A stretch of DNA of 64,000 nucleotides, from contig LJXT01000001.1 of assembly GCA_001314815.1 (NCBI GenBank), positions 7,301-71,300 on the forward strand, read 5' to 3'. A program made the translations under genes and the position numbers. Source of the stretch: Algoriphagus marincola HL-49. GTDB taxonomy: Bacteria > Bacteroidota > Bacteroidia > Cytophagales > Cyclobacteriaceae. Below are positions 29,819 through 36,076 of the stretch, piece by piece (within the stretch, counting starts at the first letter, position 1; every line of letters starts with the position of its first letter). The notes under the pieces were generated by a model, which was not told where the DNA came from, did no database searches, and was given only the letters and a program-made list of their open reading frames with translations.

Positions 29819-32005
29819 TTACAGTTTTCGCTTAAGGAAATCGGTCATTTGAGAATACAAATGCCAAGTGGTATTTCCTCCATAGATCCCATGGTTTCGG
29901 TTTGGATAATAGAAGGTCTCAAACTGCTTATCCGCCGTGATCAGGGCATCAACCAGGTCAACTGTGTTTTGGAAATGAACATTATCATCACCCGTACCAT
30001 GAATCAGTAGAAAATTCCCTTTCAACTTGTTCACATGAGTGATCGGGCTATTGTCATCATAGCCTGCAGGATTGAGTTGCGGTGTCTGAAGATAGCGCTC
30101 AGTGTAAATCGTATCATAGTATCTCCAAGTGGTTACAGGCGCCACAGCGATGGCAGTTTTGAAGACATCATTGCCTATCATCAAGGAAAGAGAAGACATG
30201 TATCCTCCGTACGACCATCCCCAGATTCCGATTCGACCCGGATCTACAAAGGCTTGCTTCGCAAAATACTTCGCTCCTTCTATCTGATCAATAGTTTCTA
30301 ATTTCCCAAGGTTCGCATAGGTCGAATGCTTGAAGTCACGACCCCGGGCTCCTGTACCGCGATTGTCTACACAGGCTACGATATAACCCTCAGCCACCAA
30401 AGCCTGATGCCAAAAGTCACGGGTACCACCCCAAGAATTCAAGACATTTTGAGAACCTGGACCGCCATAAACGTACATCAGCACCGGATATTTTTTATTT
30501 GGGTCAAAATCTGCCGGCTTGATCATATATCCGTTCAAGGAGGTACCATCCACTGTAGGAAAAGTGAAAAACTCCTTTTTACCCAAGGCAAAGCTTTTCA
30601 AGGTCTGCTCCAAAGCTTCATTTTCTTCCAAAGTTTTTACAGGCGTACCATTTGCTTCGCAAAGCACAACTTTTTGAGGGATTTCGGTAGTAGAGAAATA
30701 ATCGATAAAGAAACGATGGTCCGGACTCATATTGATTCGGTGCGTACCGGATAGTGGAGTTAGGGATTTTTTATTTTTCCCATTCAAATCAACCACATAA
30801 AAGTTTCGCTCAAGTGGGGATACCTCGGTAGATACAAAATAGATTTTCTTTCCTTTTTCGTCCACTCCAACCAATTCTGTCACTTCCCAATCACCGGAAG
30901 TAACCTGCTTGATTAAGCTTCCATCCATGGCATGATGGTAGATATGCTTGAAGCCATCCTGCTCCGATGTTCGGATAAAGCTTTTTCCATCACTCAGATA
31001 TTGGAGATTGTCATTGTAGTTCAGGTCCACATAGGTCTCTGACTTTTCCGAAATGATCAACTTGCTTTCGCCTGTATTTGCATTGGCGTGAAATAGATCC
31101 AGTTGATTTTGGAGACGATTGAGTCGGATAAAAGCCAGTTGATTGGGATCTTGCGTCCAGTAAATTCTGGGAAGGTAAATATCAGTCTCCGAACCAGCAT
31201 CCATTTTCTGGATATTACCAGATGTCAAATCATAGACATGAATACTAACCTCCGCATTCTTTTCTCCTGCCTTTGGATATTTGAATCGGTAATCGGCCGG
31301 ATAAAGCGGCCCCCAGAGTTGCATATTAAACTCAGGAACATTTGTCTCATCAAAGCGGATAAATGCGATTTTCTTCCCATCTGGAGACCATTTGAAAGCC
31401 TGTGCCATGGAAAACTCCTCTTCATAGACCCAATCTGCAGCTCCATTGATGATTTTGTTCCATTCGCCGTCTTGAGTGATTTGGGTCATCACATTGCTTG
31501 ACAAATCGACCATGAATAGGTCATTATCCTTGACGAAAGCGACCTTGTTATTGTCAGGTGAAAGCGTGGCATAAGAGATTTTCTCTCCATCTGCGAGTTG
31601 CTGCTTTTCGCCAGTAGCCATATCAACCACATAGAATATTCCCTTGCTGGATCTTCGGTAGATAGACTCCACATCAGATGCAATCAGCGCTTTGGACTCA
31701 TCCGTATTGAAGGAATAGGAAGTAAATTTGACTCCAAGCGCCCTGCCGTCTATAAGGACCGCTTCTTCCTCGCCCGTTGCAAGATTGATCTTGACCACCA
31801 TGGGAGAGCCAGCCCGATTCACCAAACTGCTGTAAAATTGCCCGTCTTTCATCCAGTTGATGCCATAGACGGATTTTTGGGAGAAGGTGCCTTTTTTAAA
31901 AACATCCTCAAGCGTTACTTTTTTCAAAGCCTGTGCTTGTAGCATGGAGGCTGTGCTGATCAAAACCAGTAAAAGCATACCGGTCTTTTTCAAACTTTTA
32001 ATCAT
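29819..32005 (-). CDS. Dipeptidyl-peptidase IV, S9B family
   Basis: DWVYEEE, GWSYGG nucleophile, GTGDDNVH, NRNHGI catalytic His. Confidence 0.95.
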   Translation of the reverse strand: MIKSLKKTGMLLLVLISTASMLQAQALKKVTLEDVFKKGTFSQKSVYGINWMKDGQFYSSLVNRAGSPMVVKINLATGEEEAVLIDGRALGVKFTSYSFNTDESKALIASDVESIYRRSSKGIFYVVDMATGEKQQLADGEKISYATLSPDNNKVAFVKDNDLFMVDLSSNVMTQITQDGEWNKIINGAADWVYEEEFSMAQAFKWSPDGKKIAFIRFDETNVPEFNMQLWGPLYPADYRFKYPKAGEKNAEVSIHVYDLTSGNIQKMDAGSETDIYLPRIYWTQDPNQLAFIRLNRLQNQLDLFHANANTGESKLIISEKSETYVDLNYNDNLQYLSDGKSFIRTSEQDGFKHIYHHAMDGSLIKQVTSGDWEVTELVGVDEKGKKIYFVSTEVSPLERNFYVVDLNGKNKKSLTPLSGTHRINMSPDHRFFIDYFSTTEIPQKVVLCEANGTPVKTLEENEALEQTLKSFALGKKEFFTFPTVDGTSLNGYMIKPADFDPNKKYPVLMYVYGGPGSQNVLNSWGGTRDFWHQALVAEGYIVACVDNRGTGARGRDFKHSTYANLGKLETIDQIEGAKYFAKQAFVDPGRIGIWGWSYGGYMSSLSLMIGNDVFKTAIAVAPVTTWRYYDTIYTERYLQTPQLNPAGYDDNSPITHVNKLKGNFLLIHGTGDDNVHFQNTVDLVDALITADKQFETFYYPNRNHGIYGGNTTWHLYSQMTDFLKRKL

Positions 32006-32135
32006 ATCAGAATTAATTTGGGGTAAATGCGTGAATTAACAGGGACGAATATAAGAAAATAAGGCGCTGAAGGGGCATTATCTTTGGAGGGTTTGGATAA
32101 ATTAAGCTACTTCGCATATTCATTTTACTCCAGCT

Positions 32136-33122
32136 ATGAAGAAAAAAATTGCCCTCGTTACAGGCGGATTTACCGGTGAGTCGGTGATCTCTTTGAAAAG
32201 CGCTGCTGTCGTGGAAAAAACCATAGACCGTAGCCGTTACGATGTCTATAAAATCCTAATTTATCCCAATGACTGGCATTTTATCTGCGATTCTGGAGAA
32301 AAGATTCCGGTGGACCTCAATGATTTTTCGATCACTATCGGCGATGAAAAAATCAACTTTGATGGAGTGTTCAACATTCTTCATGGTTCACCAGGGGAGG
32401 ACGGAAAGCTGGCCGGTTATTTTGACATGTTGGGAATTCCCTATACGACCTGCGACCAACTCACCTCTGCCATCACGATGAACAAGGGCTATACCAAAGC
32501 CATTGTGGACGATATTCCTGAGCTTCACATCGCCAAATCGCTTCAATTATTTGCGAATACTCTTGAAAACAAAAAACGAATCGAATCTGAATTGACTCTC
32601 CCGCTTTTTATCAAACCGAATAATGGAGGAAGTTCGATCGGGATGAGCAAGGTGAAAACTTGGGAGGAACTTCCGCAGGCTTTGGAAAGTGCCTTTGCTG
32701 AAGACAAACAGGTCTTGGTGGAGGAGTTTGTATCCGGTAGAGAATTCTCGATTGGGGTTTTTCGGGGAAAAGGTACAATCACGGTACTTCCTGCCACCGA
32801 AATCGTCAGCAGCAAGGAGTATTTTGATTTTGAGGCCAAGTATACCGCAGGAGTCACGGAAGAAATCACTCCAGGCCGAATGAGTGAAGAAGAGGCAACG
32901 CGTGTCAGCCGAATCGTTGAGAAGGTCTACGAAAAGCTCAACTGCAAAGGGGCGGTTCGAATTGATTATTTTTTGGAAAAAGAAAGCGGAAAATTTTACT
33001 TTATCGAGATCAATACCGTTCCCGGGCAAACAGAAACCAGTTTGATTTCTCAGCAGGTACGCGCCATAGGTATGGAAGTGAAAGAATTCTACAGTCAGTT
33101 GATTGAGGAGATGTTTGAGTGA
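32136..33122 (+). CDS. ddl: D-alanine--D-alanine ligase
   Basis: GGFTGESVISLKSA, LHGSPGEDG, FIKPNNGGSSIG, FDFEAKY, EINTVPG. Confidence 0.96.
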   Translation: MKKKIALVTGGFTGESVISLKSAAVVEKTIDRSRYDVYKILIYPNDWHFICDSGEKIPVDLNDFSITIGDEKINFDGVFNILHGSPGEDGKLAGYFDMLGIPYTTCDQLTSAITMNKGYTKAIVDDIPELHIAKSLQLFANTLENKKRIESELTLPLFIKPNNGGSSIGMSKVKTWEELPQALESAFAEDKQVLVEEFVSGREFSIGVFRGKGTITVLPATEIVSSKEYFDFEAKYTAGVTEEITPGRMSEEEATRVSRIVEKVYEKLNCKGAVRIDYFLEKESGKFYFIEINTVPGQTETSLISQQVRAIGMEVKEFYSQLIEEMFE

Positions 33123-33131
33123 GGTGGGGTG

Positions 33132-33189
33132 GGAAGATGGAAGATGGGAGCAAAAAGTAAGTGGTGAGCGGTAAGTAGTAAGTAGTGGG
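33132..33189 (+). repeat. Purine-rich degenerate heptamer repeats after the ddl stop
   Basis: GGAAGAT x2 then GGGAGCA; AAGTAAG TGGTGAG CGGTAAG TAGTAAG TAGTGGG. Confidence 0.75.
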
Positions 33190-33216
33190 TTTTCGTCAGT
33201 CATAGAGAAGTACAAA

Positions 33217-33491
33217 ATATCTTGTGAGGCGGAGCCGAACCTATCTTGCTGAACGAAGTGAAGCATATCTTGCCAAAGGCATATTTCATCGAGCGAAGCG
33301 TGATATATTTCTACTGTATTTCGTGAGGCCTATTTCAACGAGCGAAGCAAGTTGTATTTCCATCGTATTTCGCTAAATGCCTATTTCAACGACCAAAGCA
33401 CAAAATATCTTTTGAGGCGTAGCCGAACCTATCTTGCTGAACGAAGTGAAGCATATCTTGCCAAAGGCATATTTCCCCAAATACATATTTC
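33217..33491. repeat. Array of 15 heptamers (NTATCTT/NTATTTC) alternating with 4-17 nt inserts; includes a 76-bp direct repeat
   Basis: Parsed base by base. 33212-33287 and 33400-33475 match at 74/76. Confidence 0.92.
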
Positions 33492-33559
33492 CTGCAAATC
33501 CCTTCCTCAATGAATCGGAATACTTAACTTTGTTTATTGGTAACCAATCCCAAATCTCC

Positions 33560-34723
33560 ATGAACGAGCGCTACATGCAGCGCGGTGTTTCCGCCTCCAA
33601 AGAAGATGTGCATCAGGCCATCGCCAACCTTGACAAAGGCCTTTTTCCAAAAGCATTCTGCAAAATCGTCGAAGACACACTGGGCAATGACCCGGAATTC
33701 TGCAATATCATGCATGCAGACGGCGCAGGCACCAAGTCTTCACTGGCTTATCTCTATTGGAAAGAAACGGGTGACCTGAGCGTATGGAAAGGGATCGCTC
33801 AGGATGCCATCATCATGAATACCGACGATCTGCTATGTGTAGGTGCGATCAATAATATTCTTGTCTCCTCTACTATCGGTAGAAATAAAAACTTAATCCC
33901 TGGAGAAGTCATTTCAGCCATTATCGAAGGCACAGAAGAAGTACTTCAAATGCTTCGTGACAAAGGAGTCAACGCAGTACTTACCGGAGGAGAAACAGCC
34001 GATGTGGGCGACTTGGTGCGTACTGTGATTGTAGACAGCACCGTCACATCTCGCATGCGAAGAGAGGATGTCATCTCCAATGACAAAATTCAGGCAGGAG
34101 ACGTCATTGTTGGTTTAGCTTCTTTTGGCAAATCAAACTATGAAGCCGAATACAATGGTGGAATGGGAAGTAATGGTCTAACCTCTGCCAGACATGATGT
34201 TTTTAATAAACTTTTGAAGACGAATTATCCGGAATCTTACGACCCTGCAGTGCCGGAGGAATTGATTTACACAGGGAAATACAACCTGACTGATCCAGCA
34301 CCTGGAGCTCCTTTGGATATGGGCAAGCTCGTACTTTCCCCTACCCGAACGTATGCCCCCATCATGGTGGACGTGCTCAATTACTTGAGACCACACATTC
34401 ACGGTTTGGTTCATTGCTCCGGAGGCGCACAAACCAAAGTGCTTCATTTCATCGAAAATCTCCATGTGATCAAAGATAACCTCTTTGAGACTCCTCCTCT
34501 TTTCCGAATCATTCAGGAAGAAAGCGGCACGGACTGGAAAGAAATGTACAAGGTTTTCAATATGGGACACCGAATGGAAGTTTACCTAGATGAGCGCTAT
34601 GCCGAAGAAATCATCGATATCGCAGAATCCCACGGCGTCGAAGCTCAAATCATCGGTCGGGTCGAAGCCTCCACCGAGAAAAAGGTAACCATCCATAGCC
34701 CTTATGGGACTTATGAATACTAA
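33560..34723 (+). CDS. purM: Phosphoribosylformylglycinamidine cyclo-ligase (Bacteroidota type)
   Basis: RGVSASKEDVH, HADGAGTKS, GGETADVGD, GMGSNGLTSARH, VFNMGHRME; -7 TAACTTTG at 33525-33532. Confidence 0.95.
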   Translation: MNERYMQRGVSASKEDVHQAIANLDKGLFPKAFCKIVEDTLGNDPEFCNIMHADGAGTKSSLAYLYWKETGDLSVWKGIAQDAIIMNTDDLLCVGAINNILVSSTIGRNKNLIPGEVISAIIEGTEEVLQMLRDKGVNAVLTGGETADVGDLVRTVIVDSTVTSRMRREDVISNDKIQAGDVIVGLASFGKSNYEAEYNGGMGSNGLTSARHDVFNKLLKTNYPESYDPAVPEELIYTGKYNLTDPAPGAPLDMGKLVLSPTRTYAPIMVDVLNYLRPHIHGLVHCSGGAQTKVLHFIENLHVIKDNLFETPPLFRIIQEESGTDWKEMYKVFNMGHRMEVYLDERYAEEIIDIAESHGVEAQIIGRVEASTEKKVTIHSPYGTYEY

Positions 34724-34726
34724 TTC

Positions 34727-36076
34727 ATGAACTGGAAATCCATTTTTATCACTTTTGGAAAGGTCCTTCTCGGGATCTTTCTGTTTTTGTTGCTAGTGGC
34801 AATTTTCACCCTTACGCGTGTGGACCGATCGCCGATTGAGAATCAGGATTTTTATCAAAATACCCTCCAAAGCCTTCAAGACTTACCTATTGAATCCACC
34901 CAGGGAGATTTTTGGCTAGCAGGCTGGGGCAAGGCTAATATGACTCCCGACCAGCCGATTGATTTGGTCGGGTATGCACCACGGGGAGCTTATGATTTTG
35001 TTCAGGATAGCAGTTTTGTCAAAAGCATCGTACTGAGTAATGGCAAAAGCAGCATTGCTTGGCTAAATCTGGAACTCCTGATTGTCCACCCTTACTTGGC
35101 AAAATCCATCGAAAGCGCGGTCAAAAAAACCTTTCCTGAGCTTTCTCAAGTGATTTTCACCGCTACACATACCCATTCTGGCATGGGTGGCTACATGCCT
35201 GGTCCAGTGGGTGAATTAGCCTTTGGTGGTTTTCAGGAGGAAATAGTCCAAATGATCTCGGAGAAAAGTTTAGAGGCTATTTCTAAGGCAAAAATGGAGA
35301 TGGATACGGTTTCTATCACTTACCGAAAGGCAAATGCCGGAGAGCTGCTTGCCAACCGATTCATCAAGGATGGCCCGACAGACCCCTTTACCCGTCAGCT
35401 AATCTTCACCCAAAAATCTGGTCAAAAAGCCACCTTGATCACCTATTCGGCTCATGCCACTTGTCTCAGTTCTAAATTCATGGGGCTTTCTGGGGACTAT
35501 CCTTTCTACCTCATGAAGAACCTAGAAGAAAAAGAGTTTGACTTTGCGCTTTTTGCTTCCGGCACAGTCGGTTCTCACCGGCCAATTGCCCCTGGAAATC
35601 AGGTAATGGATATTCAGGAATACGCCTTTCAACTAGATTCTGTCAATCGCTTGAAAATGACTCGTTATGCTACGATTCGAAATACCAGCCTGAAAAATGC
35701 GCGATTGAATATTCAGCTTCGGGAACCGCACCTTCGAATTTCTGATAATTGGCGGATTCGCCCCTGGCTTTTTGACCGGCTAGTGGGAGATACCAATGCG
35801 CATTTCGATATCACACAAATTGGGAATACACTTCTGATCTCTTCTAGCGGTGAAATATCCGGCGTATTCTATAAAAAGTGGGAAAAGCTCGCTGAATCAA
35901 AGGGGCTTAACTTGATAATCACGACTTTCAACGGAGGCTATATCGGCTACATCACGCCTGATGATCTTTATGACGAGCACTTTCACGAAGTACGGGAAAT
36001 GAACTGGTATGGACCGGGGAATGGAACGTATTTCGATGTCCTGATCACAATGATTATCGAAAAAGCTGGACGCTAA
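34727..36076 (+). CDS. Neutral/alkaline ceramidase N-terminal-domain protein
   Basis: ATHTHSG, YSAHAT, LSGDYP, GGYIGYI motifs; N-terminal TM anchor. Confidence 0.8.
   Translation: MNWKSIFITFGKVLLGIFLFLLLVAIFTLTRVDRSPIENQDFYQNTLQSLQDLPIESTQGDFWLAGWGKANMTPDQPIDLVGYAPRGAYDFVQDSSFVKSIVLSNGKSSIAWLNLELLIVHPYLAKSIESAVKKTFPELSQVIFTATHTHSGMGGYMPGPVGELAFGGFQEEIVQMISEKSLEAISKAKMEMDTVSITYRKANAGELLANRFIKDGPTDPFTRQLIFTQKSGQKATLITYSAHATCLSSKFMGLSGDYPFYLMKNLEEKEFDFALFASGTVGSHRPIAPGNQVMDIQEYAFQLDSVNRLKMTRYATIRNTSLKNARLNIQLREPHLRISDNWRIRPWLFDRLVGDTNAHFDITQIGNTLLISSSGEISGVFYKKWEKLAESKGLNLIITTFNGGYIGYITPDDLYDEHFHEVREMNWYGPGNGTYFDVLITMIIEKAGR

Follow-up and report, generated by a model that had tools for sequence, protein, structure and literature searches.

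Conserved hexamers and variable mini-hairpins: a mosaic repeat array between ddl and purM in Algoriphagus and the family to which it belongs

Introduction

What kind of element is a 275-nt array of short constant repeats and hairpin-forming inserts that lies between the genes ddl and purM? The question is raised by Algoriphagus marincola HL-49 (Bacteroidota, Cyclobacteriaceae), in a stretch of 64,000 nt that was analysed as a whole and is termed the window here (assembly GCA_001314815.1, contig LJXT01000001.1, positions 7,301 to 71,300 of the forward strand). A first reading of the letters, the original prediction, described the array as heptamers separated by inserts that differ in sequence and keep their length and fold. 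It proposed either that the heptamer tract is a landing pad for the cores of repetitive extragenic palindromic (REP) sequences, linked to HUH enzymes such as the REP-associated tyrosine transposases (RAYT), or that the array is an undescribed structured DNA or RNA element. The explanation we favour, with moderate confidence, is that the array is the largest cluster of a lineage-restricted mosaic repeat family of new architecture, which resembles REP sequences and bacterial interspersed mosaic elements (BIME) and probably acts as single-stranded DNA (ssDNA).

The array and its internal make-up

The array and the repeats within it are as follows.

33217..33491, plus strand: array of 15 heptamers, N-TAT followed by CTT or TTC; the plus strand is taken as the structured strand on the basis of sequence and family features.
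33208..33287, plus strand: 80-nt internal direct repeat, copy 1 (units 1-4), 96% identical to 33396-33475 at a spacing of 188 nt (repeat search).
33396..33475, plus strand: 80-nt internal direct repeat, copy 2 (units 11-14; repeat search), missing from the orthologous A. formosus array.
33275..33400, plus strand: 49-nt tandem repeat, 2.5 copies (Tandem Repeats Finder, period 49, 77% matches, score 147).

The predicted parse was reproduced exactly. The heptamers start at 33217, 33241, 33265, 33281, 33305, 33316, 33330, 33354, 33365, 33381, 33405, 33429, 33453, 33469 and 33485, and the inserts between them measure, in order, 17, 17, 9, 17, 4, 7, 17, 4, 9, 17, 17, 17, 9 and 9 nt. With S for TATCTT and F for TATTTC, the hexamers run S S S F F F F F F F S S S F F. 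Counted over the whole genome, the two hexamers amount together to about 0.95 per kb per strand, which gives an expectation of about 0.26 in 275 nt against the 15 observed. A pattern of stem, tandem G.A mismatches, a further 2-3 bp and a GNA triloop is fitted by 6 of the 8 17-mers of the array; among those outside it, AACGACCAAAGCACAAA is degenerate and TTGAGGCGTAGCCGAAC has one terminal mismatch. GCGAAGC, a sequence of the d(GCGNAGC) mini-hairpin type, forms the core of two inserts (33290-33296 and 33339-33345).

The 15 units are not independent, because about half of the array is the product of a 188-nt segmental duplication and a 49-nt tandem duplication, one period of the latter consisting of a 9-mer hairpin, a 17-mer hairpin and a 4-nt unit. 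The original units number roughly 6-8 and the remainder are recent duplicates; the 188-nt duplication is either recent in the lineage of the window or has been deleted in A. formosus. The claim that the array is not simple slippage is right only in part, much of this array having arisen by segmental and tandem duplication.

The repeat family in the genome

The original prediction was to be refuted by a lack of similar arrays elsewhere and of kept length and fold in orthologous inserts; this was not the outcome, and arrays were found in the genome, the genus and the family. The genome examined, an Algoriphagus close to A. formosus, is a 3.8 Mb assembly of 190 contigs with 42% G+C. Counting an array when it has at least 4 units, it holds 32 arrays with 172 units in total, and the ddl-purM array is the largest of them. 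The constant building block is the hexamer TATTTC, with the variants TATCTT and TATCTC. Distances between successive TATTTC hexamers on the same strand peak at 11 (48 cases), 14 (22), 16 (21) and 24 nt (26), corresponding to inserts of 4-5, 7-8, 9-10 and 17-18 nt, and the commonest small module is TATTTC-(17-nt hairpin)-N-TATTTC-N5-TATTTC(-N5-TATTTC).

Each class of insert has its own character. The fillers of 4-5 nt follow the consensus N-A-Y-N-G, with A at the second position in 134 of 135 5-nt fillers and usually G at the end. The 7-nt inserts are GCGAAGC, the commonest genome-wide, ACAAAGT and similar sequences, with 97% of their outer positions paired; the 9-nt inserts, such as GCCGAAGGC, ACCGAAGGT and GCCAAAGGC, are 81% paired. 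The loops of these 7- and 9-nt mini-hairpins are GAA or AAA in 29 cases and TTT in 2. The hairpins of 16-18 nt are of two kinds, having either a stem, tandem G.A and a GNA triloop or a perfect stem and a g-CNNG-c loop. The hexamer is therefore conserved by sequence, and the hairpins by size and fold alone.

Units within one array are all directly oriented. Many loci pair two modules with an unchanging '< >' polarity in which a GAAATA arm comes before a TATTTC arm, irrespective of the direction of the flanking genes, and inversion is found only between the arms of these composites. Arrays lie outside long open reading frames (ORFs) with two exceptions (contig C101 at 32424 and contig C42 at 3516), where the ORF call looks spurious. 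Short spacers within operon-like runs, for example hisH-hisA-hisF, are often filled by arrays. Spacers between convergent genes are over-represented (8 of 26 arrays against a background of 13%, p = 0.017), and those between divergent genes are under-represented (3 of 26 against 26%), a placement that REP-like elements share.

Covariation and strand asymmetry of the hairpins

The conservation of fold was measured on 78 distinct 41-nt modules with a 7-bp hairpin. In these, 69% of the cells are paired, compared with 53.6% in shuffles. The covariation score of the hairpin is 0.323 against 0.122 in shuffled modules, a value reached by none of 500 shuffles, and controls with slid partners score 0.06-0.14. 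Double, compensatory changes occur at all seven pairs. The statement that the inserts differ and yet keep length and fold is borne out across the family, where the length classes are kept and compensatory changes are found.

The non-Watson-Crick features of the hairpins are distributed unevenly between the strands. Read on the TATTTC strand, 141 modules contain 172 purine-purine mismatches (G.A, A.G, A.A, G.G) and 10 pyrimidine-pyrimidine mismatches. Their loops are GNA in 67 cases and CNNG closed by G-C in 40 (CTTG 27, CCTG 7, CTCG 4, CATG 2), and the complementary loops, TNC and CAAG, were never found among the 141 modules. Every stabilising non-Watson-Crick feature is thus located on the TATTTC strand. 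Since the choice of mismatches and loops is confined to one strand, the selected structure must act as a single strand.

A Y-GA-R context, as seen in the modules, favours tandem sheared G.A pairs. The cores of the inserts are literally GCGAAGC, CCGAAGG, c-GNA-g and g-CTTG-c and coincide with the stable DNA motifs d(GCGNAGC), d(cGNAg) and d(gCNNGc), complete with tandem sheared G.A pairs, which would form in the arrays as they do in those motifs. A melting temperature of 76.5 C is given for the heptamer d(GCGAAGC), and single-strand initiation and ssDNA priming signals contain CCGAAGG mini-hairpins (PMC13037366). Phage and plasmid single-strand origins and in vitro selection are the settings in which such motifs are known; they are not known as hexamer-punctuated repeats dispersed over a chromosome, the form seen here. 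Nakano et al. (Biochemistry 2002) reportedly recovered the c-GNA-g and g-CNNG-c loop classes when selecting for DNA hairpins of unusual stability. Because the loop classes are known as exceptionally stable in DNA, the hairpins most likely act as DNA rather than RNA, and the mismatches and loops specific to the TATTTC strand strengthen the earlier view of them as hairpins of DNA type.

Turnover among relatives

Sixteen loci, including ddl-purM, were compared with A. formosus, their flanks being 76-99% identical. The ddl-purM spacer of A. formosus holds 9 units, of which the first four and the last match units of the window; the units in between are different, and the 188-nt duplication is lacking. 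At the 15 further loci arrays differ from their counterparts by whole units, and several are replaced by arrays of like architecture in which TATCTT or TATCTC stands where TATTTC would be. A. formosus has no array at one locus, and at another the two arrays are all but identical, a single hexamer being substituted. Change between orthologous arrays is internal and not polar. In other Algoriphagus species no array was found upstream of purM, including one species that keeps the ddl-purM synteny.

One A. formosus locus carries a gene cassette. At G291:C10:1822300-1824300, a PIN-domain toxin of 143 aa and an antitoxin of 75 aa lie between two identical 56-nt TATTTC modules (545-600 and 1486-1541 of that segment), and the orthologous site in the genome studied (C109 near 7145) holds a single module and no cassette. 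Recombination either brought the cassette in at the module or, acting between the two copies, removed it, and this locus shows modules to be involved in recombination. Homologues of the toxin occur in five other genomes, where just one adjoins an array, probably at the same locus.

Taxonomic range

The canonical module pattern has 23 matches in the genome studied, and of the 25 Algoriphagus genomes sampled 20 contain it. The order's other families were represented by 16, with one genome each, and these gave 0-1 matches; the reversed pattern, used as a control, gave 0 matches in all genomes of this genus and order scan. Within the Cyclobacteriaceae the module was found in 35 of 251 genomes, with several copies in about a dozen of 132 genera, the prevailing form outside Algoriphagus being TATTTC-N5-TATTTC-GCGAAGC-N-TATTTC. 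A looser pattern, applied to 401 Bacteroidota genomes, gave 7-25 matches in 5 of 5 Algoriphagus and at most 2 in all but two of the 396 others, the two outliers being simple 11-nt tandem repeats. In another Algoriphagus (G244:C7:47892-47974) the family's 'empty' unit is amplified alone, as a perfect tandem run of at least 8 copies of the 11-mer TATTTCTACTG.

A phage origin was rejected: the 80 pattern matches on viral contigs are chance matches with no hairpin insert and at most 4 of 7 Watson-Crick positions, and they therefore serve also as a negative control for the hairpins. The family is restricted to Algoriphagus and, patchily, other Cyclobacteriaceae, and the remaining Bacteroidota and viral contigs essentially lack it. 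No description of it was found in literature searches on the hexamer, on repeats of Algoriphagus and on mini-hairpin repeats, and the family is apparently undescribed. The second option of the original prediction, an undescribed structured DNA or RNA element, gains from the presence of arrays elsewhere and from the conservation of fold and length classes.

Neighbouring genes and spacer context

The features that flank the array are listed below.

32136..33122, plus strand: ddl (D-alanine--D-alanine ligase), upstream neighbour (Pfam Dala_Dala_lig_C/N, E 3.5e-52; ORF list).
33123..33216, plus strand: purine-rich, nearly C-free spacer, not part of the array (Tandem Repeats Finder, sequence).
33525..33532, plus strand: putative purM promoter -7 box TAACTTTG of TAnnTTTG type (sequence; position conserved in orthologues).
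33560..34723, plus strand: purM-like AIR synthase, downstream neighbour (Pfam AIRS/AIRS_C).

The ddl-purM spacer is 440 nt long. The array begins 95 nt beyond the ddl stop codon, in sense orientation, and the C-free stretch before it carries heptamer repeats of its own, GGAAGAT x2.3 at 33132-33147 and AGTAAGT x4.4 at 33156-33186. Tracts of at least 45 nt free of C or of G number 248 in the genome and adjoin 4 array loci, not clearly above the intergenic expectation. The TAACTTTG box lies 33 nt 3' of the end of the array and 27 nt 5' of the purM ATG. The promoter consensus of Bacteroidota includes a TAnnTTTG -7 box, which is the basis for its assignment as a promoter, and a TA/TTAnnTTTG box stands at the same place in nearly all purM orthologues of the genus and family. 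Given this conserved box 33 nt beyond it, the array belongs to the 3' flank of ddl and not to the purM leader.

PurM is 98% identical to that of Algoriphagus formosus XAY3209. The genes around the array, for a DPP-IV peptidase, Ddl, PurM, a ceramidase-like protein, a methyltransferase and an acyl-CoA dehydrogenase, are ordinary housekeeping genes, and none of the eight Y1_Tnp genes of the genome is on the same contig, in agreement with the earlier remark that no cas or transposase gene is nearby. A search of 32000-35000 against Rfam, with E up to 10, gave no match overlapping the array; terminator and sigma-70 promoter scans of 32900-33700 gave no consensus sites; and an exact 40-mer search of metagenomes for population variants of the array gave none. 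In several other Algoriphagus species repeats of the TTTCAAT(T/C)TT type precede the purM box in place of the TATTTC array. In two other Algoriphagus genomes, where ddl is not adjacent, a toxin-antitoxin-like two-gene cassette lies on the opposite strand about 100-650 nt upstream of purM.

Comparison with known repeat systems

The nearest kind of element is the REP/BIME mosaic, known from Enterobacteria and Pseudomonads. Both consist of short extragenic palindromic units in mosaic clusters with fixed-length linkers, sit at the 3' ends of genes and inside operons, are lineage-specific and variable between close relatives, and are amplified in tandem with flanking segments. The repetition of short extragenic palindromes within one genome, at modest copy number (172 units in 32 arrays), is shared as well. 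The defining properties of REP/BIME elements, namely foot motif, conserved stems, alternating orientation and a cognate RAYT, are however lacking. REP sequences conserve the stem and a GTAG or CGTC foot, whereas here the unpaired hexamer linker is conserved and the stems vary, and the motif flanking the hairpin is TATTTC, TATCTT or TATCTC in place of GT[AG]G or CGTC. BIME units alternate in orientation and those described here are all direct; the hairpins are far smaller, with stems of 2-7 bp, and number tens rather than hundreds of copies; and no cognate RAYT was found. Composites resemble the REP doublets known as REPINs in that many copies consist of two inverted arms about 20-35 nt apart, in fixed '< >' polarity and about 100-130 bp in total. 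Their arms nevertheless carry different hairpins and match at the hexamers alone, so that no long doublet hairpin results, and no single-copy RAYT is flanked by them. With regard to miniature inverted-repeat transposable elements (MITE), the composites do have inverted hexamer arms, but their linkers and hairpins differ between copies, and no target-site duplication was seen by eye.

Neisseria intergenic mosaic elements (NIME) with dRS3, and the pneumococcal BOX element, are comparable in being modular, with a short constant repeat, variable internal units and strain-to-strain variation in unit number. Units there are 20-150 bp against 11-24 bp here and there is no relation in sequence; dRS3 moreover is a phage integration target, and nothing comparable has been shown for these arrays. 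With CRISPR loci the arrays share merely the look of a repeat with differing inserts. The repeat has 6-7 nt instead of 23-50, the inserts are self-complementary and 4-17 nt long instead of foreign spacers of 26-72 nt, and the arrays are numerous and scattered, lacking a leader and any nearby cas gene; a CRISPR reading was rejected on the unit sizes, the housekeeping neighbours and the dozens of dispersed loci.

Mode of action and alternative explanations

If the family is a REP/BIME-like mosaic of new architecture, as we favour, the element would be read from its TATTTC strand in single-stranded form, DNA being the most likely. The hexamers would stay unpaired between extruded hairpins and offer a sequence-specific handle for a trans-acting factor. 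Units are gained, lost and replaced as wholes, probably through slipped-strand or template-switch events and recombination between the hexamer direct repeats, which the hairpins may bring together; the copy in the window was roughly doubled by its one 188-nt duplication and its 49-nt tandem duplication. Like REP/BIME elements, the array is probably tolerated or mildly useful in the 3' flank of ddl rather than being a gene-specific regulator.

Several observations weigh against this explanation. No trans-acting factor was identified, including RAYT/Y1, by context or phylogenetic profile, and copy number is in the tens per genome, far under that of classical REPs. A lagging-strand ssDNA mechanism might predict an orientation bias relative to GC skew; none was seen for solo arrays, 8 having the same sign and 7 the opposite. 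Nearest-neighbour folding of the whole array yields Z values between +0.9 and +2.7 for either strand under DNA and RNA parameters alike, with no excess stability over shuffles, and the claim of a fold therefore rests on motif knowledge and family covariation rather than on predicted energy. Under RNA parameters the TATTTC strand has a lower folding energy than the complementary one in 91 modules against 27, and modules lie downstream of a co-oriented gene in 32 cases against 17, a modest excess; both observations would allow a role at the RNA level. G.T mismatches (23) exceed A.C mismatches (16), a weak asymmetry, and the argument for DNA and against RNA rests on literature knowledge of loop stabilities.

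Some of these points would suit an element that works as RNA, which we consider possible, if unlikely. Arrays would then be transcribed in 3' untranslated regions or intercistronic RNA, their hairpins blocking 3' exonucleases or acting as weak bidirectional terminators or insulators, and their single-stranded UAUUUC repeats binding an RNA-binding protein in a sponge or rut-like manner. Such a role agrees with the excess of modules behind co-oriented genes, with the enrichment of arrays at convergent gene ends and with the preference of RNA-parameter folding for the TATTTC strand. The '< >' layout moreover presents, on both strands, an A-rich GAAATA arm, hairpins and a U-rich TATTTC arm, like a bidirectional terminator, and g-CUUG-c is a stable tetraloop in RNA as well. 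RNA selection would, however, be expected to favour GNRA or UNCG tetraloops, which were not seen among the loops of the 141 modules, where GNA triloops dominate; G.U is not clearly preferred over A.C. Units also stand between hisH, hisA and hisF, where termination would harm, and antisense-only and divergent-promoter placements occur. The array in the window has no terminator consensus and matches no Rfam family. An intrinsic terminator was rejected for it, no site with a GC-rich stem and a T-run being present in 32900-33700; some modules of type B elsewhere have GC stems of 6-7 bp followed by N-TATTTC, with just 4 T in 8 positions.

It is distinctly unlikely, in our judgement, that the units are substrates of an undiscovered single-strand-specific enzyme, other than a classical RAYT, which would recognise TATTTC beside a folded hairpin and insert, delete or exchange units. 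They could in that event also serve as recombination sites for small cassettes, like the attC sites of integrons, at which the A. formosus PIN cassette hints.

The landing-pad proposal, in which REP cores are mobilised by a RAYT/HUH (Y1) transposase and the heptamer is the cleavage or target site, has become improbable. Enzymes of this kind recognise strand-specific ssDNA hairpins beside a short conserved motif, and the gain and loss of whole units fits cleaving and rejoining at repeated sites. The genome has eight Y1_Tnp (IS200/RAYT-like) genes of three types, on contigs C70, C93, C85, C108, C113, C131 and C107. No array, however, lies within 600 nt of any of them, no canonical module adjoins a Y1 gene in genomes G019 and G002, and in none of the four genomes examined does a Y1 transposase gene stand next to an array. 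Y1 genes occur in Algoriphagus that lack the element, none was found in one genome that has it, and a subclass-2.6-like RAYT is present in 17 of 24 genomes with the element and in 21 of 30 without it. The RAYT-like genes of the genome are flanked by other palindromes, different in sequence from the module, whose stems, unlike those of REP families, are not conserved. Other REP-like palindromes share clusters with 2 of 30 arrays in the genome studied, and arrays occasionally share clusters with the REPs that flank a 2.6-type RAYT. Bacteroidetes RAYT of subclass 2.6 are associated with 'atypical' REPs (PMC6006769), but the published REPs of this subclass are GCTAG-hairpins, unlike the modules described here (Quentin et al. 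2018, supplement). With no local linkage in four genomes, no co-distribution in two profile comparisons and different REPs flanking the RAYT genes, a RAYT link was rejected.

As regards the Y1_Tnp genes themselves, four have the Y...Q..HH motif typical of subclass 1.2 and one is subclass-2.6-like (NHIH / YIHQNP; C113:3694-4179). Two of the proteins have PNHFHFL / YIH(H/Q)NP and are flanked by CCTTCGAGG-type palindromes, and the copy on C107 has an in-frame TAA. In the psd-icd region of A. formosus (L143 900-3350) the long spacers on both sides of psd combine several other palindromic families, AGCGCAAGTCTCAGGACTTGTGC, CGAGATTTGCAATCTCG and GGATTGAAAATCCTACGAT among them, in mosaic clusters and hold four near-identical TATTTC modules as well; two of these palindromes also flank the subclass-2.6-like RAYT gene of the genome (C113:3694-4179).

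Equally little credence is given to an array of binding sites in double-stranded DNA, with TATTTC-N5-TATTTC at an 11-bp phase bound by an OmpR/PhoB-type regulator or a nucleoid protein and the hairpins incidental or cruciform-forming spacers. The commonest spacing, 11 bp, is one helical turn, and with the filler A (134 of 135) and preferred G the conserved part of each repeat comes to about 11 bp. PhoP/PmrA-type boxes are likewise built as hexamer direct repeats spaced by 5 bp, and some arrays abut promoters. For duplex DNA, however, the strand asymmetry of mismatches and loops is meaningless, and spacings of 14, 16 and 24 bp break the helical phase. Arrays lie inside operons and at the 3' ends of unrelated housekeeping genes, and orthologous promoters do not share them.

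A microsatellite-like repeat that is neutral and prone to slippage, has neither a function nor a factor of its own, and keeps its hairpins only since palindromes flanked by direct repeats duplicate and delete easily, is likewise a poor candidate. Much of the array in the window is plain duplication, turnover is very fast, a relative has pure 11-nt tandem runs of (TATTTCTACTG)n and there is no replication-related orientation bias. Neutrality does not account for the recurrence of one hexamer and one set of insert classes across a dozen genera and, within each genome, at dozens of unlinked loci, for compensatory changes with a consistent strand-specific choice of mismatches and loops, or for the fixed '< >' polarity of the composites, and chance matches to the pattern elsewhere have no hairpins.

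Implications

Small dispersed repeats of bacteria are understood mainly through the REP/RAYT model of Proteobacteria, and Bacteroidota are poorly charted in this respect. The family described here inverts the usual logic, since the linker is conserved in sequence and the hairpins are conserved in size class and fold, with motifs of exceptionally stable DNA mini-hairpins. A conserved linker together with structured hairpins points to a reader of single-stranded nucleic acid that recognises sequence plus structure, and the clear-cut, patchy distribution over about 250 sequenced relatives opens the search for a partner gene to direct testing with phylogenetic profiles. In Algoriphagus genomes the arrays are likely to cause assembly breaks, and, being hypervariable between sister species, they could serve as typing markers.

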